Shown here one piece after another: positions 1-52,887 of a stretch of 64,000 bases of DNA. A program made the position numbers and the translations under genes. Position 1 is the stretch's first letter. Each line of letters begins with the position of its first letter. This stretch comes from Mobula birostris (Eukaryota): positions 17,892,072-17,956,071 of the forward strand of contig NC_092390.1 of assembly GCF_030028105.1 (NCBI RefSeq), in the 5' to 3' direction. The notes under the pieces were generated by a model that was given only the letters and a program-made list of their open reading frames with translations, was not told the origin of the DNA and made no database searches.

Positions 1-3000
1 CACTATGTGTGTGTGGGGGGGTAGAATGGTGTCTGTATAAATCACTGTGTGTGGGGGGTGGAATGGTGTCTGTATATAACTCACTGTGTTTGTGGGGGTG
101 GGTGGTTTGGTATCTGTATAACTCTGTGGGGTGGAATGGTGTCTGTATAACTCACTGTGTGTGGGGGGGGTGGAATGGTGTCTGTATAACTCACTGTGTG
201 TGAGGGGGTTGGTTGAATGGTGTCTATATAACTCACTGTGAGTGGTGGATGGAATTGTGTCTATGAATCACTGTGTCTGGGGGGGGTGGAATAGAGTCTG
301 TACAACTCAGTGTGTGGGGGGGTGGAATGGTGTCTGTATAAATCGTAGTGTTTGGGGTGTGGAATGCTGTCAGTATAATATACTGCATGTGTGGGGGGGT
401 GTTGAATGGTGTCTGTATAATTAACTGTGTGTGGGGGGTGGAATGGTGACTATAACTCACTGTGTAGTGGGGGTGGAATGGTGTCTGTATAACTCACTGT
501 GTAGTGGGGGCGGAATGGTGTCTGTATAACTCACTGTGTGTGAGGGGGTTGGTTGAATGGTGTCTATATAACTCACTGTGAGTGGTGGATGGAATTGTGT
601 CTATGAATCACTGTGTCTGGGGGGGTGGAATAGAGTCTGTACAACTCAGTGTGTGGGGGGGTGGAATGGTGTCTGTATAAATCGTAGAGTTTGGGGTGTG
701 GAATGCTGTCAGTATAATATACTGCATGTGTGGGGGGGTGTTGAATGGTGTCTGTATAATTAACTGTGTGGGGGGTGGAATGGTGACTATAACTCACTGT
801 GTAGTGGGGGTGGAATGGTGTCTGTATAACTCACTGTGTAGTGGGGGCGGAATGGTGTCTGTATAACTCACTGTGTGTGGGGGGTGGAATGGTGTCTGTA
901 TAACTCAGTGTGTGGGGGGGGTGGAATATTGTCTGTATAACTCACTGTGTTGGGGGGGGATGAATGGTGTCTGTATAACTCAGTGTGTGTGGGGGGGGGG
1001 TTGAATACTACCTGTAAAACTCACTGTCTTTCTGTGGGGGGGTGGAATGGTGTCTGTATAAATCACTGTGTGTGGGGGGGTGGAATGGAGTCTGTATAAC
1101 TCACTGTGTGTGGGGGGAGGAATAGTGTCTGTCTTAACACTGTGTGTGGGGGGGTGGAATGGTGTCTGTATAACTCACTGTGTGTGTGTGGGGGGGGGTG
1201 GATTGGTGTCTGTATAAATCACTATGTGTGTATGTGGGGGGGGTGGAATGGTGTCTGTATAAATCGTGGTGTTTTGGGTGTGGAATGCTGTCAGTATAAT
1301 ACACTGTACATGGGGAGGGGGTGGAATGGTGTCTGTATAACTCACTGTGTGGGGGGGGATTTGGAATGGTGTCTGTATAAGTCACTGTGTGGGGGGGAGT
1401 GAAATGGTGTCTGTATAACTCAAAGTGTGTGGGGGGGTGGAATGGTGTCTCTAAATCACTGTGTATCGGAGTGGAATGGTGTCTGTATACCTCACTGTGT
1501 GTGCGTCGGGGGGTGGAATGTTGTCTGTATAACTCACTGTGTGTGGGGGGTAGAATGGTGTCTGTATAACTCACTGTGAGTGGTGGATGGAATTGTGTCT
1601 GTAGGAATCACTGTGTCTGGGGAGGTGGAATAGAGTCTGTATACTCAGTGTGTGTGTGGGGGGGTGGAATGGTGTCTGTATAAATCACTATGTGTGTGTG
1701 GGAGGGGTGGAATGGTGTCTGTATAAATGGTGGTGTTTTGGGGGTGGAATGCTGTCAGTATAATACACTACATGTGGGGGGGGTTGAACAGTGCCTGTAT
1801 AACTCACTGTGTGGGGGGGGGGGTTGAACGGTGTCTGTATAACTCACTGTGTGAGGGGGGGGGTTGAACGGTGTCTGTATAACTCACTGTATGTGGGGGG
1901 GGGTTGAATGCTGTCTGTATAACTCACTGTGTGTGTGTGGGAGGGGTGGAATGGTGTCTGTATAACTCACTGTGTGTGGGGGTGTGGAATGGTGTCTGTA
2001 TACCTCACTGTGTGTGGGGGGGGTGGAATGGTGTCTGTATAAATCAATGTATGTGTGGGAAGGGGTGGAATGGTGTCTGTATAACTCACTGTGTGTGGGG
2101 GTGTGGAATGGTGTCTGTATACCTCACTGTGTGTGGGGGGGGGGTGGAATGGTGTCTGTATAAATCAATGTGTGTGTGGGGAGGGGTGGAATGGTGTCTG
2201 TATAACTCACAGTGTGTGGGGGGTGGAATGGTGTCTCTCTAAATCACTGTCGGGGTTGGTGTGGACTGGTGTCTGTATACCTCACTGTGTGTGTGGGAGG
2301 GGGTGGAATGGTGTCTGTATAACTCACTGTGTTTGTGGGGGGTGTAATGGTGTCTGTATAACTCACTGTGTGGGGGGTGGAATGGTGTGTCTCTAACTCA
2401 CTGTGTGTGGGGGGGTTGAACAGTGTCTGTAAAACTCACTGTGTGTGGGCGGGTGGAAGGGTGTATGTAAAATTCACTGTGTGTGGGGGGTAGAATGGTG
2501 TGTCTCTAACTCACTGTGTGTGGGGGGGTGGAATGGTGTCTGTAAAACTCACTGGGTGTGGGGGGGGTTGAACAGTGTCTGTATAACACAGGGTGTGGGG
2601 AGGGTGGAATGGTGTCTGTATAAATCGTGGTGTTTGGGGTGCAGTATGGTATCTGTAAAACGTACTGTATGTGGGGGGGGTTGTTGAATGGTGTCTGTAT
2701 AAATAACTGTGTGGGGGAGGGTGGAATGGTGTTTGTATAACTCACTGTGTGTGTCGGGGGGTGGAATGGTGTCTCTCTAACTCACTGTGTCGGGGTTGCT
2801 GTGGACTGGTGTCTGTATGCCTCACTATGTGTGTGTGGGAGGGGTGGAATGGTGTCTGTATACCTCACTATGTGTGTGTGGAGGGGTGGAATGGTGTCTA
2901 TAAATCACGGTGTTTGTTGGGGTGGAATTGTGTCTGCATAACTTACTGTGTGTGGGGGGGAATAGTGTCTGTATAACTCACTGTGTGTGGAGGGTGTAAT

Positions 3001-5148
3001 GGTGTCTGTATAACACACTGTGTGTGGGGGTGTGGAATGGTGTCTGTATAACTCACTGTGTGTGGGGTGGAATGGTGTCTGTATAAATCACGGTGTTTGT
3101 TGGGGTGGAATTGTGTCTGCATAACTTACTGTGTGTGGGGGGGGGTTGAACAGTGTCTGTATAACTCACTGTGTGTGGGGGTGTGGAATGGTGTCTGTAT
3201 AACTCAGTGTGTGTGTGGGGGGGGGGGTTGAATAGTACCTGTAAAACTCACTGTCTTTCTGTGGGGGGTGGAATGGTGTCTGTATAAATCACTGTGTGAG
3301 GGGGTGGAATGGTGTCTGTATAAATCACTGTGTGGGGGGGTGGAATGGTGTCTGTATAAATCACGGTGTTTGTTGGGGTGGAATTGTGTCTGCATAACTC
3401 ACTGTGTGTAGGGGGGTTGAATAGTGTCTGTATAACTCACTGTGTGGTGGGGTGGAATGCTGTCTCTCTAACTCACTGTGTGTGTGGGGGGGTGGAATAC
3501 TGTCTGTAAAACTCACTGTGTGTGGGGGTGTGGAATGGTGTCTGTATAACACAGGGTGTGGGGAGGGTTGAATGGTGTCTGTATAACTCACTATGTGTTT
3601 GTGGGTGGGGTGGAATGGTGTCTGTATAAATCGTGGTGTTTGGGGTGCAGTATGGTGTCTGTAAAACGCACTGTATGTGGGGGGGGGTTGTTGAATGCTG
3701 TCTGTATGAATAACTGTGTGTGGGGGGGCGTGGAATGGTGTTTGTATAACTCTGTGTGTGGGGGGGTGGAATGGTGTCTCTCTAACTCACTGTGTGTCGG
3801 GGTCAGTGTGGACTGGTGTCTGTATACCTCACTATGTGTGTGTGGGAGGGGTGGAATGGTGTCTGTATAACTCACTGTGTGTGGGGGTGGAATGGTGTCT
3901 GTATAACTCACTGTGTGTGGGGGGTGGAATGGTGTCTGTATAACTCACTGTGTGGGGGGTGGAATGGTGTGTCTCTAACTCACTGTGTGTGGGGGGGTTT
4001 GAATAGTGTCTGTAAAACTCACTGTGTGTGGGGGGGGGTTGAACAGTGTCTGTAAAACTCACTGTGTGTGGCGGGTGGAAGGGTGTGTCTCTAACTCACT
4101 GTGTGTGGGGGGGGTGGAATGGTGTGTGTCTAACTCACTGTGTGTGGGGGGGGTGGAATGGTGTGTCTCTAACTCACTGTGTGTGGGGGGGGTGGAATGA
4201 TGTGTCTCTAACTCACTGTGTGTGGGAGGTGGAATGGTGTGTCTCTAACTCACTGTGTGTGGGGGGGTGGAATGGTGTGTCTCTAACTCACTGTGTGTGG
4301 GGGGGTTGAACAGTGTCTGTAAAACTCACTGTGTGTGGGCGGGTGGAAGGGTGTATGTAAAATTCACTGTGTGGGGGGGGTGGAATGGTGTGTCTCTAAC
4401 TCACTGTGTGTGGGGGGGTGGAATGGTGTCTGTATAAATCGTGGTGTTTTGGGTGTGGAATGCTGTCAGTATAATACACTACATGTGGGGGGTTGAAAGG
4501 TGTCTGTATAACTCACTGTGTGTGTGGGGGTGGAATGGTGTCTGTATAACTCTGTGTGTGGGGGTGTAATGGTGTCTGTATAACTCACTGTGTGTGGGGG
4601 GTGTAATGGTGTCTGTATAACTCTGTGTGTGGGGGTGTAATGGTGTCTGTATAACTCACTGTGTGTGGGGGGTGTAATGGTGTCTGTATAACTCTGTGTG
4701 TGGGGGTGTAATGGTGTCTGTATAACTCACTGTGTGTGGGGGGTGTAATGGTGTCTGTATAACTCTGTGTGAGGGGGTGGAATGGTGTCTGTATAACTCA
4801 CTGTGTGTGGGGGTGTGGAATTGAGTCTGTATAAATGACTGTTTTTGGGGGGGAATGGTGTCTGTATAAATCACTGTGTTTGGGGGGGTGGAATGGTGTC
4901 TGTATAACTGTGTGTGGTGGGTGTAATGGGGTCTGTATAACCCACTGTGTGTGGGGGGTGGAATTGTGTCTGTATAAATCTCTGTGTGGGGGTGTGGAAT
5001 GGTGTCTGTATAACTCACTGTGTTTGTCAGGGGGTGGAATGGTGTCTGTATAACTCACTGTGTGTGTAGGGGCGGATTGGTATCTGTATAACTCACTGTG
5101 TGGGGGGGGGGGTGGAATGGTGTCTGTATAACTCACTGTGTGTGAGGG
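1..5148. repeat. G/T-rich tandem satellite, ~35-40 bp unit (GGTGGAATGGTGTCTGTATAACTCACTGTGTGTGGGGG), roughly 135-140 degenerate copies, truncated at the window edge; lies in lipase intron 8
   Basis: The unit recurs continuously with variable (GT)n and Gn tracts. A 340-bp higher-order block is visible (AGTGGTGGAT at 241 and 581). Confidence 0.97.
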
Positions 5149-5678: not shown

Positions 5679-5798
5679 CTTCCCAGATCCCGTCCACATC
5701 CAGGATTGTTGAAATGAGATTCTTTGAGCAGCCCGGCATGTTGTCGCCACCATTTGGGTAGAAGTCCACGTGACCACAAGGATAGATGATTCCAAACC
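5679..5798 (-). CDS. Lipase coding exon ([41 protein letters not shown]), includes start of the lid
   Basis: 120 bp; acceptor ctatcgcag, donor gtacac; phase 1-1. Confidence 0.93.
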
Positions 5799-6238: not shown

Positions 6239-6358
6239 CTTTGCTGGGGTACTTCAAGGAACCATCGGTGTGAATCACATCAACGAACAGTGCATCAGTG
6301 GGATCCAACCTCACCTCGGGAGGGGTGTTCTGGAAGTACGGGGCAACGGGATCGAGGC
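6239..6358 (-). CDS. Lipase coding exon ([40 protein letters not shown]), contains the catalytic Asp
   Basis: 120 bp; acceptor actccgcag, donor gtggat. Confidence 0.95.
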
Positions 6359-6904
6359 CTGCGGAGTAATCATGAATCAGTGTGATGTCCTCAGCTTCCT
6401 GTTATGATCTAATCCTGGCTGTTACCCACAGCCATTACCATGAACCTCAAACTCCTAATCTATATCGAAGAGGGCTATTCAGCCCACTGATACTATGGCA
6501 AATCATTGAGCAAACCCATTCATTTCCCTATAACCTAGCCTGCCCACATTCCCATCAGTCCCTCCGACTCTCTGCACCCATACATCAGGAGCATTTTACA
6601 GCAGGTGATTAACTCCCTTACCCACATGGTACTTGGTATGTGGGTGGAAAGTGGGGCACTTCAGGAGAGCATGCAGACTCCACACAGATAGTACTGGAGG
6701 TCAGGATTGAATCCATATCACGGGAACTCTGTGTGTCTGCTCACTGTGCAGTCTTTCCCCATTAATATCAAACAAACCTGCAATCCTCTCTGTAAACAGT
6801 CTCAGTGAATTCCCCCCTCCCCCCATTTCACCATCAGCCCTTCCTCCCGGCCTCCCATCCCAATACCAACCATCCCGAATCCAGGCCTGAGGAGAGAACA
6901 TTAC

Positions 6905-7013
6905 CTGTAATCCGGGATATCCCCGGCTTCCTGCGTCCTGCCTCACCAGCGGCGTGGGCACCTAGTCCGTGCCCCACCAGGTATACATCTGGCAGGGTGT
7001 AATTGTAGTTGCT
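6905..7013 (-). CDS. Lipase coding exon ([36 protein letters not shown]), nucleophile elbow reads GHGLG
   Basis: 109 bp; acceptor gcaccccag, donor gtaatg. Confidence 0.95.
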
Positions 7014-7117
7014 CTGGGGTGCACAAAGACAAAGAGGATGGTGAGCAGACACACCTCTACTTCAGCACCCTAACTGGGAGCCCGAGCCCACCCCAATCTC
7101 TCTGTGAACTCCTTATG

Positions 7118-8266: not shown

Positions 8267-11200
8267 AGAAGGCACACCAGCAGCTCTATTTTGTTAAGAG
8301 TCTTAGGAGATTTGGTATGTCACCAAATCCCTTGCAAATTTCTATCCATGTATTGTGGAGAGCATTTTGGTGCTACTTGGAGTGTGCATTTCCAGATAAA
8401 GTCCATGACAGCTGAGGCATGCTCATCGAGGTTAGCAAGTGGAACAGGTCAAAAGCTTTAAGTTCCTCGGGGTCAATATCACAAACGACCTGACTTGGCC
8501 CAACCAAGCAGAGTCCACTGCCAAGAAGGCCCACAAGCACCTTTACTTCCTGAGAAAGCTAAAGAAATTTGGCCTGTCCCCTAAAAACGTCACTAATTTT
8601 TATAGATGCACCGTAGAAAGCATTCTTCTAGGGTGCATCATAGCCTGGTATGGAAGTTGTCCTGTCCAAGACCGGAAGAAGCTTCAGAAGATCGTGAACG
8701 CAGCCCAGCACATCACACAGATTGTTATTAATGATTATGATATAGTTGGGATCACAGAGACATGGCTCCAGGGTGACCAAGGATGGGAGATCAACGTTCA
8801 GGGATATTCAATATTCAGGAGGGATAGACATGAAAGAAAAGGAGGTGGGGTGGCGTTGCTGGTTAAAGATGAGATTAACGCAATAGAAAGGAAGGACATA
8901 AGCCAGGAAGATGTGGAATCGATATGGGTAGAGCTGCATAACACTAAGGGGCAGAAAACGCTGGTGGGAGTTGTGTACAGGCCACCTAACAGTAGTAGTG
9001 AGGTCAGAGATGGTATTAAACAGGAAATTAGAAATGTGTGCAATAAAGGAACAGCAGTTATAATGGGTGACTTCAATCTACATGTAGATTGGGTGAACCA
9101 AATTGGTAAAGGTGCTGAGGAAGGGGATTTCTTGGAATGTATCTGGGATGGTTTTTGGAACCAACATGTCGAGGAACCAACTAGAGAGCAGGCTATTCTA
9201 GAGTGGGTTTTGAGCAATGAGGAAGGGTTAATTTGCAATCTTGTCGTGAGAGGCCCCTTGGGTAAGAGTGACCATAATATGGTGGAATTCTTCATTAAGA
9301 TGGAGAGTGACATAGTTAATTCAGAAACAAAGGTTCTGAACTTAAAGAGGGGTAACTTTGAAGGTATGAGACGTGAATTGGCTAAGATAGACTGGCAAAT
9401 GACACTTAAAGGATTGACGGTGGATATGCAATGGCAAGCATTTAAAGGTTGCATGGATGAACTACAACAATTGTTCATCCCAGTTTGGCAAAAGAATAAA
9501 TCAAGGAAGGTAGTGCACCCGTGGCTGACAAGAGAAATTAGGGATAGTATCAATTCCAAAGAAGAAGCATACAAATTAGCCAGAAAAAGTGGCTCACCTG
9601 AGGACTGGGAGAAATTCAGAGTTCAGCAGAGGAGGACAAAGGGCTTAATTAGAAAGGGGAAAAAAGATTATGAGAGAAAACTGGCAGGGAATATAAAAAC
9701 TGACTGTAAAAACTTTTATAGATATGTAAAAAGGAAAAGACTGGTAAAGACAAATGTAGGTCCCCTACAGACAGAAACAGGTGAATTGTTTATGGGGAGC
9801 AAGGACATGGCAGACCAATTGAATAATTATTTTGGTTCTGTCTTCACTAAGGAGGACATAAATAATCTTCCAGAAATAGTAGGGGACAGAGGGTCCAGTG
9901 AGATGGAGGAACTGAGCAAAATACATGTTAGTAGGGAAGTGGTGTTAGGTAAATTGAAGGGATTAAAGGCAGATAAATCCCCAGGGTCAGATGGTCTGCA
10001 TCCCAGAGTGCTTAAGGAAGTAGCCCAAGAAATAGTGGATGCATTAGTGATAATTTTTCAAAACTCGTTAGATTCTGGACTAGTTCCTGAGGATTGGACG
10101 GTGGCTAATGTAACCCCACTTTTTAAAAAAGGAGGGAGAGAGAAACCGGGGAATTATAGACCGGTTAGCCTAACATTGGTGGTGGGGAAACTGCTGGAGT
10201 CAGTTATCAAAGATGTGATAACAGCACATTTGGAAAGCAGTGAAATCATCGGACAAAGTCAGCATGGATTTGTGAAAGGAAAATCATGTCTGACGAATCT
10301 CATAGAATTTTTTGAGGATGTAACTAGTGGAGTGGATGGGGAGAACCAGTGGATGTGGTATATTTGGATTTTCAAAAGGCTTTTGACAAGGTCTCACACA
10401 GGAGATTAGTGTGCAAACTTAAAGCACACGGTATTGGGGGTAAGGTGTTGATGTGGATAGAGAATCGGTTAGCAGACAGGAAGCAAAGAGTGGGAATAAA
10501 CGGGACCTTTTCAGAATGGCAGGCAGTGACTAGTGAGGTACCGCAAGGCTCAGTGCTGGGACCCCAGTTGTTTACAATATATATTAATGACTTAGATGAG
10601 GGAATTAAATGCAGCATCTCCAAGTTTACGGATGACACGAAGCTGGGCGGCAGTGTTAGCTGTGAGGAGGATGCTAAGAGGATGCAAGGTGACTTGGATA
10701 GGTTGGGTAAGTGGGCAAATTCATGGCAGATGCAATTTAATGTGGATAAATGTGAAGTTATCCACTTTGGTGGCAAAAATAGGAAAACAGATTATTATCT
10801 GAATGGTGGCCAATTAGGAAAAGGGGAGGTGCAACAAGACCTGGTTGTCATTATACACCAGTCATTGAAAGTGGGCATGCAGGTACAGCAGGCGGTGAAA
10901 AAGGCAAATGGTATGCTGGCATTTATAGCGAGAGGATTCGAGTACAGGAGCAGGGAGGTACTACTGCAGTTGTACAAGGCCTTGGTGAGACCAGACCTGG
11001 AGTATTGTGTGCAGTTTTGGTCCCCTAATCTGAGGAAAGACATTCTTGCCATAGAGGGAGTATAAAGAAGGTTCACCAGATTGATTCCTGGGATGGCAGG
11101 ACTTTCATATGAAGAAAGACTGGATGAACTAGGCTTGTACTCGTTGGAATTTAGAAGATTGAAGGGGGATCTGATTGAAACGTATAAAATCCTAAAGGGA

Positions 11201-14506: not shown

Positions 14507-15085
14507 TGTTACAGCCCAGCCCTGTTTAACAGGGAGATGGTTCCTGTTACAGCCCAGCCCTGCCTAACAGGGAGATGGTTCCTGTTACAGCCCAGCCCTG
14601 CGTAACAGGGAGATGGTTCCTGTTACAGCCCAGCCCTGCGTAACAGGGAGATGGTTCCTGTTACAGCCCAGCCCTGCGTAACAGGGAGATGGTTCCTGTT
14701 ACAGCCCAGCCCTGCCTAACAGGGAGATGGTTCCTGTTACAGCCCAGCCCTGCCTAACAGGGAGATGGTTCCTGTTACAGCCCAGCCCTGCCTAACAGGG
14801 AGATGGTTCCTGTTACAGCCCAGCCCTGCCTAACAGGGAGATGGTTCCTGTTACAGCCCAGCCCTGCCTAACAGGGAGATGGTTCCTGTTACAGCCCAGC
14901 CCTGCCTAACAGGGAGATGGTTCCTGTTACAGCCCAGTCCTGCGTAACAGGGAGATGGTTCCTGTTACAGCCCAGTCCTGCGTAACAGGGAGATGGTTCC
15001 TGTTACAGCCCAGTCCTGCGTAACAGGGAGATGGTTCCTGTTACAGCCCAGTCCTGCTTAACAGGGAGATGGTTCCTGTTACAGC
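14507..15085. repeat. 38-bp minisatellite, ~15 copies (CCTGTTACAGCCCAGCCCTGCGTAACAGGGAGATGGTT)
   Basis: Near-identical tandem units with an internal inverted repeat CCTGTTAC/GTAACAGG. Confidence 0.97.
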
Positions 15086-15169: not shown

Positions 15170-15304
15170 CTCCAGTGCATCGAGGAAGAATGCAATTTCT
15201 GCTCCCACCACACGGACGTTCTGCGCAGCCTGGCTAAACACACATTGAGAGCCACCATTCCAGTCCACACTGATGCAGTTGACACCATCCACTTGTAGAA
15301 TAGT
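15170..15304 (-). CDS. Lipase coding exon (TILQVDGVNCISVDWNGGSQCVFSQAAQNVRVVGAEIAFFLDALE)
   Basis: 135 bp; acceptor ctctttcaag, donor gtgagt. Confidence 0.95.
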
Positions 15305-18729: not shown

Positions 18730-18855
18730 CTTGCACAGATCCACAACCCATTGGGAATCTCCATTTTTCAGATGTCCGTGGACGACCAGGACACTCTTCT
18801 GATTGGTGTCAAAGTTAGAGGCGGCAACCGTCTGCGGATCTGTCCCGCTGATTTC
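18730..18855 (-). CDS. Lipase coding exon (EISGTDPQTVAASNFDTNQKSVLVVHGHLKNGDSQWVVDLCK)
   Basis: 126 bp; acceptor tctctgcag, donor gtggga; not in the ORF track, read by hand. Confidence 0.92.
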
Positions 18856-20289: not shown

Positions 20290-20450
20290 CTGGAAGTTGT
20301 CGGGGTTCTGCCTGGTGTAGAGCAGGAAACGGGTGCCGATTTTCTCAGGGCTCCAGGGGACCCTGGCAACGGGTCTTTCCTTGGTCCCTGTCCATGGGTA
20401 TCCACGGGCGAAACAGCCCAGCCTATCGTAGCATATTTCATCCGGTCCAC
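20290..20450 (-). CDS. Lipase coding exon ([54 protein letters not shown])
   Basis: 161 bp; acceptor gtgttggcag, donor gtaaca; typical mature N-terminus of pancreatic lipases. Confidence 0.94.
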
Positions 20451-21812
20451 CTGCCAACACTGAGACACAATGAGGTACCAATGAAGTGCAGTCACTGGGT
20501 GACGAACAAGCTCTCCTGTACGCCTGTCACACCGCAACCGTACCTAGCTGATTACATCTTGATGCCCAGGCTCCCAAATCAACACCCTCACCATCACTCT
20601 GCCTTCCCAGATGCTGCCTGACTCGCTGAGTTCATCCAGCAGTTTGCTTTTCACTTCAAATTCCCGCGTCTGCAGTGCCCCGTGTCTCCGAACTTGCAGA
20701 GCTGTGGTTCCCTTTGTTACCCCCACTCTGTAGCGGTCACTACTCTCCCGCCCCCCGCCGTTCTACCCTCCAGATCCAAAACTTTGCTCCCTAACGTATC
20801 CGATCTGGTCCCAAGTTCGCCATTCGCATTTCTGACTCTGACCGTCATCAGCTTCTGAATTCAGTTCACATTTTAAAACGGTATCATGAAAAACTCTGCT
20901 GGAATATTGAGTTCAGTCTGGTCACCTCATTATAGGAAGAATGTGAATGCTTTAGAGAGGGCGGAGAGGAGATTTATGAGGATGCTGCCTGGATTAGGGA
21001 GCATGTTTTATGAGGAGTGGTTGAACATGCTAGGGATTTTTGCTTTGGGGTGAAGGAGGATGAGAGACGACTTGGTAGAGGTGTACGGGATGTTAGGAGA
21101 CACAGAGCGGTCAGTAACCATCTTTTTCCCTAGAGTGGAAATGGCTAATATGAGAGAGCATAATTTTAAGGTGACTGGAGGAAAGTATTGGGGGGGGGGG
21201 GGTTAATAGGTGCTTTTTTTAATATAGAGAATATCGTTTTTTATAGAGTGGGAATGGAAAGAGCGTGGAACACACTGCCAGGGGCATAGCCGTGCAGGCA
21301 GACACATTAGGGACATCATTAAGAGACTCTGAGATAAGCACATGGATGAAAGAACAATGCAGATCTATGTGGGAGGGAAGTGTTAGATTGATCATGTAGG
21401 TCAGCACAACATTGCGGGCCGAAGGGTCTGTACTGTGCTGTAAGTTCTATGTTCCATAAAACTCTCATTCCTGTTTCCTATCCCCCATGCCTGCCCACTT
21501 CCCTGCCATTGTCCCCTCCAGCAACTTTACAACAAATCTCTGTCTGACTCTAATTCTCGCCTCCTGGCCTCAAATTTATCTCCCCTGGGCTAAGTCCCGA
21601 GATCTGGAACTCTCCACCTAATCCTGCTCCGCTTCTCTCTACTCCGTGAAGGCGTTCCTTAAAGCCAATTTCTGCCTTTATTTCACTGCCTGATTCAATT
21701 AAATTTTATCTATGACTGCAAGCCCACCCATAATGCAGGGGGGGAACACCGTATCTCTCAGTTTAAACACCGAAGGAACCAAGCCATTAACAAATGCTTT
21801 CTGGTCAGTTAC

Positions 21813-21861
21813 CGTTGGCTCTGGTGAGAAGGAAAGTGATGGGGATCCACAGACTCAGCAT
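21813..21861 (-). CDS. Lipase signal-peptide exon (MLSLWIPITFLLTRANG)
   Basis: 49 bp; ATG directly after acceptor tttctctttcag, donor gtaact; phase 1 fits the next exon; same layout as PNLIP-family exon 2. Confidence 0.88.
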
Positions 21862-25485: not shown

Positions 25486-25650
25486 CTCTCACGGCTTTCA
25501 GCCCTGAGCGAGGCGCGGCTGCTCTTATACGGTCACCTGTGGCCCGCGGCGTGCGAAGGGCGCAGCTGGTCGCTGAGAACGCCGAGCGTGAAATCCAGAT
25601 GCTCGGCTCGGTCTTTCCAACAAGGTCAGCTGATAATGGGGAGAAAAACA
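25486..25650 (-). promoter_or_regulatory. Putative lipase promoter plus short non-coding exon 1
   Basis: Minus-strand TATAAGA at 25529-25523; donor GAG|gtgagt at 25486/25485. E-boxes at 25534, 25563, 25596 and 25627; CAAGGTCA at 25621; TGATAA at 25631. Confidence 0.6.
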
Positions 25651-28849: not shown

Positions 28850-28960
28850 TGTCGTAAAGAGTAGCTGGGAACTCTACCAGCACTACCGTAAAGTGAGAGC
28901 CACCTCTATAAGTGCGGTCGGGTGTCGTAAAAAGCGGCAGAGAGTGAAAATGGCGGCGGT
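28850..28960 (+). promoter_or_regulatory. TAF5 proximal promoter / CpG island edge with YY1/TISU-like AAAATGGCGGC over the start codon
   Basis: AAAATGGCGGC at 28947-28957; three (GT)CGTAAA motifs at 28851, 28886 and 28924; CpG-rich to ~29550. Confidence 0.65.
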
Positions 28961-29542
28961 GCCGGAACCGCCGAGTGACGGGCCGAGCCCGAGTCCCGCT
29001 GTCTCCGCGGCGCCCACCTCTACCCCGACTCCCACCCCGGCCCCCGCCGTCGCCGCTGCTTCTCCGGCGCCCTCGCCGTCGCCCAGCCCGTCGCCAACGC
29101 TGGCGGTGAAGACGGAGACGGCAGAGAGCCCGGGGGAGGGAGGCAGGCCGGCGGCGGGTCCCGGCCCCGAGCTCAGCGAGCGCCAGACCTTGCTCGCCGT
29201 GCTCCAGTTCCTGAAGAAGAACCGTTTCCGCGAGGCCGAGGAGACGCTGCGGCGGGAGGCCAGCGTGCAGGAGGCGTTGGACGATGCGATGAGGACGGCC
29301 GGTCCCCGCGGCCCCGATTCAGTGCACCAGCCCGACGTCAGTTCGGTGCTGTCGGCCTACAGCAACCAGGGAGACCCCAGCCTCTACGAGGAGTACTACA
29401 GCGGCCTGAAGGCCTTCATCGAGGCGGCGCTGGACGCGCTGAAAGCCGAACTGGCCAGCCTGCTGTACCCGGTGTTCGTGCATCTGTACCTGGAGCTGGT
29501 CTACAACGAGCACGAACGTGAGGCCCGGCACTTCTTCCAGAG
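28950..29542 (+). CDS. TAF5: TAF5 exon 1 (P/A/S-rich tail, LisH, start of NTD2)
   Basis: RQTLLAVLQFLKK..LRREA; QPDVSSVLSAY..LYPVFVHLYLELVYN; donor AG|gtcagc. Confidence 0.95.
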
Positions 29543-32500
29543 GTCAGCATAGCGTCAATGTGTTACAAACCCCTTGCTCGGAGCCCAAGCACGTCTGACA
29601 CTTGTCTCACAGGACAACAATGGTGTGTGAAACACTGTCAGCGTGTAAACCCATTCCTGGGGCCCAAACAAGTCTTGACACTTCAATAGCTCAGCTCCCG
29701 TACACAGTCTCACGGTGCGGTGTGTGGAACACCGTGTTGGTGTTTCAACTCCTTACCGAGCATGAGTGGCAGCTCAGCAACACAACGTCACGGGTCAATG
29801 ATAGTGCACAAAACAGTTTTCTGGAGGAACTCATCGGGTCTAGCAGCATCTGTGAGAGGAAAGCAATTGTTCATAGTTCAGGCTGAAACCCTGCACTAGG
29901 ACAGACAGGGTCCTAATGTAAGGCTTCAACCCAAAACAATCTGATATAGTGCGTGGCACAGTGTGATGGGTAAATAGCATAGTGTTAATGTATAGACCCT
30001 TGTGGCTGAAGCAGAAAGAGGAGGCATAACATTTGTTCCACATTGAGAGTTAATGTAGTCTGGTATCTGTGTTGCATGTCTGTTTCTGTGTGGGGGTACA
30101 GAGGCAACTGGGAGTAGTTTCCAGTCTAGAACCCCTCCTGTTACTGGATCAGCCCTTGCTCCGTGAACACACACAGTGCTGGAGAAACTCAGGCCAGGCA
30201 ACGTCTATAGGGGGGAATAAACAGTTGACGTTTCGGGCTGAGACCCTTCAACGGGACTGGTAAAGAAGGGGGGAGGATGCCAGAATGAGAAAGTTGAGGG
30301 AGGGGAAGGATTACAATCTGGCAGGTGATAGATGAATCATAGACACAAAAGATTGTGCAGATGCTGGAAATGCAGAGCAACATACACTCACAAAACGCTG
30401 GAGGGACTCGGCAGGTCACATAACATCTATGGAAATGACGTTTGAGGCCAAGACCCTTCATCAGGACTCTTGATGCTGCCTGACCTGCTGAGTTCATCCA
30501 GCATTTTGTATGTGTTACTAAGGTGGTGGGGAAAGGCAGGTAGGTGAGGGACGGGGAGATGAAGTGAGAAGCTGGGAGATGATAGGTGGAAATTATATCT
30601 GGTAGCTAATTTTAAAGATTTCCCCGTGCTTTTGCACTCCACAGTATGAAATTCCAGAAGTGGAATATCAGGGCCCCCGTGGACAATGTCATCTGTCGCA
30701 GTCCTCAATACCACTCAGTTATTGGTCAGCGTCTGTTATGTAAGCATATGCAAAATAGAGATGGTTCCATTTCTAAATGGGTAATCTGATATAATGGGAG
30801 CAAGTGAGGCGGTTTCAGTTACATCTCATTTAGGAAACTTTTGGGAAGGACAATGGTTTTAAAGGAATCTATATGAAGATGTGTCACTCATGGGCTACCA
30901 CCAAATTGCCCCAGTTCCTATCCCTTTCTTTGTTAATTGATTCTGTTACACTGCAGCACTTAATGAGCCGTGATTTCACGCAGTGCGCAACCCGGCAAGG
31001 TTACGTTTCCTACAGGAGAATGCCTATTCCACCCCATTCTCGATTTTTCGAGACAGTTTTGGGCAGGGTGAAGATGCGTCTCTACCAAAGGAGGTGTAAG
31101 GCGCTCCTTCCCTCTGCTAGCCTGCGGGTCAACTTTGGGAAAGGTGTAGCCCCTGCTTAAACCCCCCCCAACTGATCAGGGTCACTGGGCAGACAGTCTC
31201 TGAAGAGTATTGATTATGACTGGAGTCACCCATCTTCTAAAGGCACTGCCTAGAAGAAGGCAATGGCGAACCATTTCTGTAGAAAAATTTGCTGAGAACA
31301 ATCATGGTTGTGGAGACCATGATCTCCCACGTCATGATGATGAATATTGAGAGGGGGGCCTGGCAGAGAAGCGTGTTCTTAAGTGAACCTGTTGGCTATT
31401 TTAGTAAGATTGGGCATGCTTATCAAATAGGGTTAGATTAGTGTATACCCACTGGAGTTTGGAACAATGAGCAATGATGGGACACAATATTGCCTTCTTT
31501 TGCACAATGGTTGTTGTCACTACTTATATATGTATCTTTATAAATGCAACATGGAATGGGCCCTTCCTACCCAGCGAACTATGCCGCCCAGCGACCTGCA
31601 TGTTTAACCCTAGCCTAATCCCAGGACAGTTTATAATAACCAGTTAACCTACCAGCCGGTACGTCTTTGGTGTGTGGGAGGAATCTGGAGCACTCGGGTG
31701 AAATCCCTTGAATCACAGGGAAAATGTACAAATTTCTTACAGACAGCGTCGGAATTGAAATCAGAACTCCAATGCCCCGAGCTGTAATAGCGTCATGCTA
31801 CTGTGGCGCCTCGTGTATAGTTTTTCATAAATTTTGTTGTATTTCTTTATTTTCCTTAAATATCTTGGAAATGAGTCTGTAGGTTGTGGAATCAGTTCAG
31901 AGTTGTGGTGAGTGAAGTTGTCCCTGCCGGTTCAGGAGCCTGATGTTTGTAGTTTAATAATTGTTCCTGACGCTGGTGGTCAGAAGAGAGCATGGCCTGG
32001 ATGATGGGGCTGTTGATTGCTGCTTTCTTGCTTAGTGCTCCTTGTAAATGCACTATTAACCTGTGACATGGTTTATTGCAGGTACCATGGAGATCAGGAA
32101 GGTTACTACCAGGATGACCTGCGAGTGCTGGCTGGGCTATCCAAGAAAGAACACATGCAGGGTAACGAGACGGTCCTAGACTTTCGCACCAGCAAGTTTG
32201 TGCTGCGTATCTCGCGCGACTCCTACCAGTGCCTGAAACGCCATCTGCAGGAGAGGCATAACAACCAGATCTGGAACATCGTGCAGGAGCACCTGTTCAT
32301 CGACGTCTTTGACGGCATGCCCAGGAGCAAGCAGCAGATTGAGTTAACGTCTGGAGGAATGGCAGGCGAGGCCAAGAGGGAGGCCAATAAAACCAAGGTG
32401 GGCACTTAGTCGTCTTCATTCTTCGTGGGATCAGTAGGGAGTTCCGGACCTGAGTTCCCATTCTCTGGAGGGTCAGTGGTGAATTCTAGGCCCGTTCCCT

Positions 32501-51269: not shown

Positions 51270-52887
51270 CAGTGGTATGCAAAAGTTTGGGCACCTCGGT
51301 CAAAATTTCTGTTACTGTGAATAGCTAAGCAAGTAAAAGATGACCTGATTTCCAAAAGGCATGAAGTTAAAGATGACACATTTCTTTAATATTTTAAGCA
51401 GGATTACCTTTTTATTTCCATCTTTTACAGTTTTCAAAATAACAAAAAAGGAAAAGGGCCCAAAGCAAAAGTTTGGGCACCCTGCATGGTCAATATTTAG
51501 TAACACCCCCTTTGGCAGGTATCACAGCTTGTAAACGCTTTCTGTAGCCAGCTAAGAGTCTTTCAATCCTTGACTCTTAGGGATTTTCGCCCATTCTTCC
51601 TTACAAAAGCCTTCCAGTTCTGTGAGATTCTTGGGCTGTCTTGCATGCACTGCTCTTTTGAGGTCCATGTACAGATTTTCAATGATGTTTAGGTCGGGGG
51701 ACTGTGAGGGTCATGGCAAAACCTTCAGCTTGCACCTCCTGAGGTAGTCCATTGTGGATTTTGAGGTGTGTTTAGGATCGTTATCCTGTTGTAGAAGCCA
51801 TCCTCTTTTCATCTTCAGCTTTTTTACAGACGGTGTGATGTTTGCTTCCAGAATTTGCTGGTATTTCATTGAATTCATTTTCCCCTCTACCAGTGAAATG
51901 TTCCCCGTGCCACTGGCTACAACACAAGCCCAAAGCATGATCGATCCACCCCCGTGCTTAACAGTTGGAGAGGTGTTCTTTTCATGAAATTCTGCACCCT
52001 TTTTTCTCCAAGCATACCTTTGCTCATTGCGGCCAAAAAGTTCTACTTTAACTTCATCAGTCCACAGGACTTGTTTCCAAAATGCATCAGGCTTGTTTAG
52101 ATGTTCCTTTGCAAACTTCAGATGCAGGAGTTTGTGGTGAGGATGCAGTGAAGGTTTTCTTCTGATGACTCTTCCATGAAGGTCATATTTGTGCAGGTGT
52201 CGCTGCACAGTAGAACAGTGCACCACCACTCCAGAGTCTGGTAAGTCTTCCTAAAGGTCTTTTGCAGTCATACGAGGGTTTTGATTTGCCTTTCTAGCAA
52301 TCCTACGAGCAGTTCTCTCAGAAAGTTTTCTTGGTCTTCCAGACCTCAACTTGACCCCCACCGTTCCTGTTAATTGCCATTTCTTAATTACATTACAAAC
52401 TGTGGAAATGGCTACCTGAAAACACTTTGCTATCTTCTTATAGCCTTCTCCTGCTTTGTGGGCATCATTTATTTTAGAGTGCTAGGCAGCTGCTTTGAGG
52501 AGCCCATGGCTGCTGATTGTTGGGACAAGGTTTGAGGAGTCAGGGTATTTATAAAGCTTTGAAATTTGCATCAACTGGCCTTTCCTAACGATGACTGTGA
52601 ACAAGCCATAGCCCTAACAAGCTAATTAAGGCCTGAGACCTTGGTAAAAGTTATCTGAGAGCTCAAATCCCTTGGTGTGCCCAAACTTTTGCATGGTGCT
52701 CCTTTCCTTTCTCCCCAACTAAAATTGTACAAAACAAAAATAATACACTAATCTTGCTTAAAATGTTGAAAAGAGTGTTTCATCTTTAACTTTATGACTT
52801 TTGGAGATCAGTTCATCTTCTACTCACTTAACCATTCACAGTAACAGAAATTTTGACCAGGGGTGCCCAAACTTTTGGATGCCACTA
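51270..52887 (-). mobile_element. Full-length Tc1-family (DD34E) transposon, IR/DR type, inactivated
   Basis: TA|CAGTGGTATGCAAAAGTTTGGGCAC...GTGCCCAAACTTTTGGATGCCACTA|TA; ~210-bp IRs with internal DR; [32 protein letters not shown]; stop at 51711. Confidence 0.95.

Follow-up and report, generated by a model that had tools for sequence, protein, structure and literature searches.

Is the glycine that stands in place of the catalytic serine in a pancreatic lipase gene of the ray Mobula birostris an error, a sign of decay, or the mark of a lipase kept for something other than hydrolysis? The gene, called paralogue A here, lies partly within a 64-kb stretch of DNA on contig C25 of the M. birostris genome (the window), for which an initial annotation had proposed a secreted pseudo-enzyme that may bind lipid or colipase, with a role in digestion control or lipid provisioning. 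From the letters of the window it could not be seen that the glycine is a clade-wide trait, that most sharks keep the serine, that an active-type paralogue exists and that the protein shares Val178 with the inactive pancreatic lipase PLRP1. Paralogue A is real, conserved and apparently undescribed; inactive pancreatic lipases themselves are already known (PLRP1). In the openly accessible literature, a scope that excludes subscription journals (and with them the report of the cloning of a stingray lipase) as well as supplements to preprints, nothing was found that describes this paralogue or any Ser-less lipase of rays. The available part of a survey of fish lipases finds the triads conserved and makes no mention of sharks (PMC9386070).

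A glycine codon in an intact gene

The nucleophile elbow G-H-G-L-G is encoded by coding exon 5 (6905..7013, on the minus strand like all exons of the gene) and aligns with the G-H-S-L-G of solved pancreatic lipases. Translation and alignment thus bear out the glycine first read from the sequence: the codon GGA at 6968-6966 (-) is Gly176 of the precursor, at the position of the catalytic Ser152. Two or three substitutions separate it from each of the six Ser codons, and the check in reads that had been suggested gave GGA both times: a run X1 contig, which may come from the source DNA, spans 6684-7100 with 0 differences, and so does one of run X5, from a different sample and study, over 6793-7087. 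A base-call error, already judged improbable in the initial annotation, does not account for the codon, since the contig from the second sample has identical letters and GHGLG is also found in the orthologues of seven further batoid species and of the sevengill shark Heptranchias. Because the catalytic Ser codon is AGC in the second M. birostris paralogue (paralogue B) and AGT in the smooth-hound enzyme, we infer that the serine probably became glycine by a single transition (AGY to GGY), with a silent change coming later.

Paralogue A has 12 coding exons, separated exclusively by GT-AG introns, and encodes 475 aa with no stops; 7 coding exons are inside the window, open and with canonical splice sites as originally described, and 5 lie just beyond it. 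Coding exon 1 (21813..21861) opens with the ATG and a hydrophobic, signal-peptide-like sequence, MLSLWIPITFLLTRAN, which matches the N-terminus of orthologue P0170 from Hemitrygon; since this ATG follows a splice acceptor, there is probably a non-coding exon upstream. Coding exon 2 (20290..20459) contains the mature N-terminus and the first disulfide pair, exon 3 (18730..18855) the beta5 loop VHGHLKNG, with His at the position of Phe77 and Lys at that of Asp79, and exon 4 (15170..15304) the motif NCISVDW with an extra Cys136. Beyond the elbow, exon 6 (6239..6358) retains the catalytic Asp176 and carries Val178 (LDPVAP) and the beta9 loop, and exon 7 (5679..5798) holds Cys244, which is specific to the clade, and the greater part of the lid. 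Coding exons 8-12, located 5.7-17.4 kb beyond the first base of the window (adjacent stretches L013 and L014), encode His263, the PLAT domain and the stop; the adjacent sequence, to which the initial annotation had pointed for His263 and the C-terminal domain, therefore holds both, with a complete PLAT domain and intact exons.

The protein begins with a hydrophobic N-terminus and has the lipase domain and, complete, the C-terminal PLAT domain of the PNLIP-type family, with all exons located in the genome (Pfam PF00151 and PF01477 on orthologue P0170). Its lid aligns without gaps to that of human PL, at full length between the two cysteines. Twelve cysteines are present in all nine proteins with Gly, and the last two in 8 of the 9, the ninth model being without that exon. 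The AlphaFold model of P0170 (419/475 residues, or 88%, identical) is confident except for the lid (pLDDT 87.8) and represents a complete two-domain lipase, with TM scores of 0.86-0.89 to PL, PLRP1 and PLRP2 alike; since the three match about equally, it confirms the fold and not the function. The model of P0003 (27 sequences, pLDDT 57) was set aside as poor.

P0003, the closest public protein model (source name Mobula birostris), matches in its core, has a different first exon and is without the last one. In P0003 and P0171 an exon at 25487-25630 (-) replaces the signal-peptide exon at 21861-21813, and is probably a mis-prediction or a non-coding exon. Public models label the ray gene 'triacylglycerol lipase-like' or 'PLRP2-like'; the 12-exon model corrects both the annotation of the ray gene and that of the locus model P0003.

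The evolutionary rate of the gene bears on whether it is decaying. On a fixed species tree, with the 10 species that have both genes and 464 gap-free columns, the protein rate of A divided by that of B comes to 1.30 for the three tip branches with Gly and 1.31 for the 13 branches with Ser. Loss of the serine therefore did not relax the protein, the ratio being the same with Gly and with Ser. Between M. birostris and sawfish, protein identity is 81% for A and 87% for B. In exon 7, run X10 differs by 5 synonymous and 3 non-synonymous changes, giving a pN/pS of 0.18 (P 0.018) in one exon and one comparison, counted among 40 of 112 difference rows. In favour of a codon error or a decaying pseudogene are the faster evolution of A (about 1.3 times the rate of B) and the fact that spliced transcripts were not seen; this explanation is hardly credible given the identical letters in a second sample, the 12 intact exons, the open full-length models in 8/8 batoid species, the identity with sawfish and a rate unaffected by loss of the serine; on these sequence comparisons, a decaying pseudogene is very unlikely. 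Of the signs of a recent pseudogene anticipated earlier, downstream stops are absent altogether, and near-neutral evolution is countered by pN/pS for exon 7 alone.

Distribution of glycine and serine among orthologues

Orthologues were compared in a homologue set of one full-length protein per species, from which isoforms and partial models (P0009, P0175, P0177, P0179-P0183) were excluded. Glycine occupies position 152 in 8/8 batoids (Mobula birostris, Mobula hypostoma, Hemitrygon, Hypanus, Pristis, Narcine, Amblyraja and Leucoraja), which we take to cover all four batoid orders, and also in Heptranchias, that is, in 9/9 batoid and Heptranchias proteins. Serine is found in 11/11 other shark A orthologues, including that of the squalomorph Pristiophorus, as well as in 3/3 sturgeon-family A proteins, 12/12 B proteins and 85/86 other full-length lipases (one gap). 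The comparison across chondrichthyans called for by the initial annotation thus gives a glycine that is clade-wide in batoids and a serine in most sharks. Among the Ser-bearing shark orthologues, that of Cetorhinus (P0184) has further active-site changes, with an elbow reading G-Y-S-L-G and a beta5 loop reading I-Q-G-Y.

The elasmobranch A orthologues form a fully supported clade, sister to a gene of sturgeons and paddlefish, with which they group at 100/100. Because this sister gene has been kept in sturgeons and paddlefish, the origin of paralogue A is probably older than the separation of cartilaginous from bony fish. No A-type gene of Callorhinchus was found among the 120 best matches listed, which is weak evidence. 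Searches of the M. birostris genome returned at least one A locus and at least one B locus, and family and protein searches found no Ser-bearing second copy of A.

On a tree from which columns 152 and 178 were left out, residue 152 changes state twice, and a topology forced to contain a single Gly clade was rejected (p-AU 0.026, both columns omitted), so that a single origin of the glycine is disfavoured. Two independent losses of the serine, one on the batoid stem and one in the Heptranchias lineage, would be the simplest history on this tree; one loss followed by two reversals requires only one more step.

Active site and likeness to PLRP1

Compared with an active lipase (EC 3.1.1.3), paralogue A is without the Ser nucleophile and has Asp176 and His263. 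These two residues, along with His151 and Trp252, are retained in 9/9 Gly proteins. Residue 178 is Val or Ile in 20/20 elasmobranch A and 7/7 mammalian PLRP1 proteins (Val in M. birostris) and in 0/12 B, 0/3 sturgeon A and 0/86 other proteins. Residue 180 is Pro in 19/20 elasmobranch A proteins, with Ala in Heterodontus only. Other changes are clade-wide in elasmobranch A (Phe77 to Tyr/His, Asp79 to Glu/Lys, Arg256 to Lys/Met and Tyr267 to Val/Ile), and the lid residue Asp257 is Asn in the Gly proteins. Cys244 is present in 20/20 elasmobranch A proteins and 0/108 others; Cys136 (exon 4) is fixed together with it in all 20, and the two could possibly form an extra disulfide.

Val178 together with Ala180 reportedly causes the inactivity of PLRP1 (Roussel et al. 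1998), and paralogue A carries half of this signature, Val178 being present and Ala180 absent. It resembles PLRP1 in combining the pancreatic lipase fold with a PLAT domain, in having Val178 and in coexisting with an active paralogue and colipase, and differs in that PLRP1 keeps Ser152 (7/7) and Ala180, where the ray protein has Gly and Pro180. Orthology to PLRP1 was rejected, as a tree uniting elasmobranch A with PLRP1 has a p-AU of 5e-6, and the likeness is consequently convergent.

The ray substitution has a counterpart in the laboratory. S152G serves in PMC12208342 as the inactive mutant of human PNLIP, identical in substitution and fold to the ray protein, the one being a laboratory inactive control and the other a natural conserved gene; on the strength of this mutant, ray A is predicted to be unable to hydrolyse esters. 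The same result argues against paralogue A having kept a slow or different catalysis, in which His263 and Asp176 would activate a water molecule at the site of the Ser hydroxyl. The invariance of His263 and Asp176 (9/9) would suit such a mechanism, all the more as the unrelated GHGLG lipase P0239 lost both, but no alternative nucleophile is present near the elbow in the alignment, and we regard residual catalysis as improbable. Paralogue A is very probably non-hydrolytic yet functional, whichever partner it may have.

Which partner this might be is addressed in part by the pattern of conservation. Among batoids, 13/16 columns of the elbow, 33/36 of the Asp176 region and 217/337 of the catalytic domain are invariant; the lowest proportion, 48/102, is that of the C-terminal domain, which binds colipase. 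With the C-terminal domain variable, this pattern favours the old pocket over colipase, though paralogue B shows the same N-over-C trend. Paralogue A could accordingly be read as a non-catalytic binder of lipid or bile salt, the old pocket serving as carrier or sensor and loss of the serine sparing the ligand from cleavage. Retention of the four active-site residues in all nine proteins and the high invariance of the elbow and the Asp176 region are compatible with this, as are the changes at Phe77, Tyr267, Val178 and Cys244, which look like retuning rather than decay, and the loss of Tyr404. Any such ligand is putative, however, most colipase contacts are kept, and conservation of these regions extends to the A and B proteins that have the serine, so that fold constraints may explain the pattern; we consider a carrier or sensor rather unlikely, though the leading alternative to the explanation preferred below.

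Colipase, paralogue B and the role of the ray protein

Paralogue B lies 44.5 Mb from A on the same contig and resembles it in exon structure, intron phases and domain number (two). A and B are 51-54% identical in 10/10 species, and B, in contrast to A, keeps an intact Ser-Asp-His triad and Ala178. The smooth-hound lipase SmDL (KY548033), whose activity has been measured, is B-type according to the sequence in the supplement of PMC7094207, and that paper reports that this enzyme does not need colipase and predicts a second, colipase-dependent lipase. A Ser-bearing A could be this second smooth-hound lipase, in which case Val178 would not abolish activity.

Two colipase exons with open frames are present on contig C18 of the M. 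birostris genome. Gln369, which we take to be a contact of colipase, is kept in 9/9 Gly proteins. So are the contact residues Asn241, Ser244, Asp248 and Lys400, as given in PMC7094207; Tyr404, named there as a key contact, is Asp in 8/9 Gly proteins, and in the 12 B proteins the position is Asn (10) or Asp (2). Since a stingray lipase is inhibited by bile salts and rescued by its own colipase (PMC3098174), its dependence on colipase in bile salts means that rays have the system that a competitor needs. In PMC6386725, mammalian PLRP1 is described as inactive and as lowering lipase activity by competing for colipase.

These observations suggest a PLRP1-like damper, because inactivity is predicted, PLRP1 provides a precedent and the colipase contacts are mostly kept. 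Against it stand the Asp at the position of Tyr404, the replaced lid residues Arg256 and Asp257, the weakly conserved C-terminal domain, the colipase independence of the smooth-hound B enzyme and Pro180 where PLRP1 has Ala. Paralogue A would have arisen before sharks and bony fish split and been kept in sturgeons and paddlefish. In the ancestor of sharks and rays it may then have gained Val178 and a remodelled pocket, likely already cutting its activity on triglycerides, after which the catalytic serine would have become dispensable and been lost twice. Ray A, no longer hydrolytic, would bind colipase or the bile-coated surface of fat and so damp the active paralogue B. By analogy with PLRP1, competition for colipase is likely and control of digestion through colipase plausible; secretion by the pancreas is predicted from the family. 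The secreted, conserved pseudo-lipase of the initial annotation is upheld by the signal-peptide-like exon 1, Asp176 and His263, the complete PLAT domain and unrelaxed selection (secretion itself being predicted). As a whole, the reading of A as an intact secreted pseudo-lipase, likely PLRP1-like and damping B, is our best explanation, put forward with a little less than even confidence. More tentative still is the broader proposal of a convergent elasmobranch brake, independent of that of mammals, in which an ancient jawed-vertebrate paralogue would have become inactive by the Val178 route in the common ancestor of sharks and rays. Two later losses of the serine would then account for a naturally occurring S152G lipase conserved in all rays and skates.

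A role outside digestion, in yolk or uterine lipid supply or in mucosal defence, has its precedents elsewhere. Dipteran yolk proteins and neuroligins are Ser-less alpha/beta-hydrolase folds in which the nucleophile is lost and the fold kept for binding, and such lipase folds act as yolk proteins in flies, although these belong to other subfamilies and tissues than paralogue A. Skates lay eggs, and skates, the electric ray, sawfish, stingrays and the sevengill shark differ in reproductive mode. The Gly form spans all of these, and the literature search found no paper that links a gene of this kind to the uterus or yolk of rays, so that the lipid provisioning of embryos suggested at first is not upheld. 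Catshark pancreas expresses colipase and transcripts labelled Pnliprp1 and Pnliprp2 (PMC4362833), which also argues against a role outside digestion, with the reservation that they match the two paralogues by label only; two supplements of that paper hold no lipase entries. We regard such a role as doubtful, though marginally less so than residual catalysis. At the locus itself, contigs of run X5 (guessed to be RNA) contain the introns of A, have no splice joints and are uninformative on expression, and a simple pattern scan of the 6 kb upstream of the ATG found no PTF1-type pancreatic elements, which is likewise uninformative, the promoter being unplaced.

Nearly all that is known of what inactive pancreatic lipases do comes from mammalian PLRP1. 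Elasmobranch A offers a second, independent lineage with Val178, and in rays one without the nucleophile, so that nature has done the experiment. Setting shark A (Ser) directly beside ray A (Gly), sturgeon A (Ser, Ala178) and B makes it possible to ask whether competition for colipase is a recurrent control of fat digestion, and the same comparison addresses the order in which a lipase becomes a pseudo-enzyme.

Ser-to-Gly elbows are sporadic in the wider lipase family, clean G-x-G-x-G elbows occurring in 5/175 aligned among 150 lipase family representatives. One of these five, P0239 (384 aa), a vertebrate-like lipase with GHGLG and no PLAT domain in which the Asp and His of the triad are both replaced, may be a second, independent dead pancreatic lipase.

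Several other features accompany the gene in the window. A TAF5-type gene (Pfam TFIID_NTD2) has its first coding exon at 28950-29549 (+), head to head with the lipase gene and about 7 kb from the lipase ATG, and is a usable synteny marker for paralogue A. Lipase intron 4 contains a LINE-type element (8436-11062, +; antisense to the gene) with endonuclease and reverse-transcriptase frames, and intron 7 a strongly G-skewed tandem array of about 134 copies of a 37-bp unit (8-5148). Another array, of 15 near-identical 38-bp copies, is located at 14507-15085, and a remnant of a Tc1-type transposase at 51714-52250 (-).
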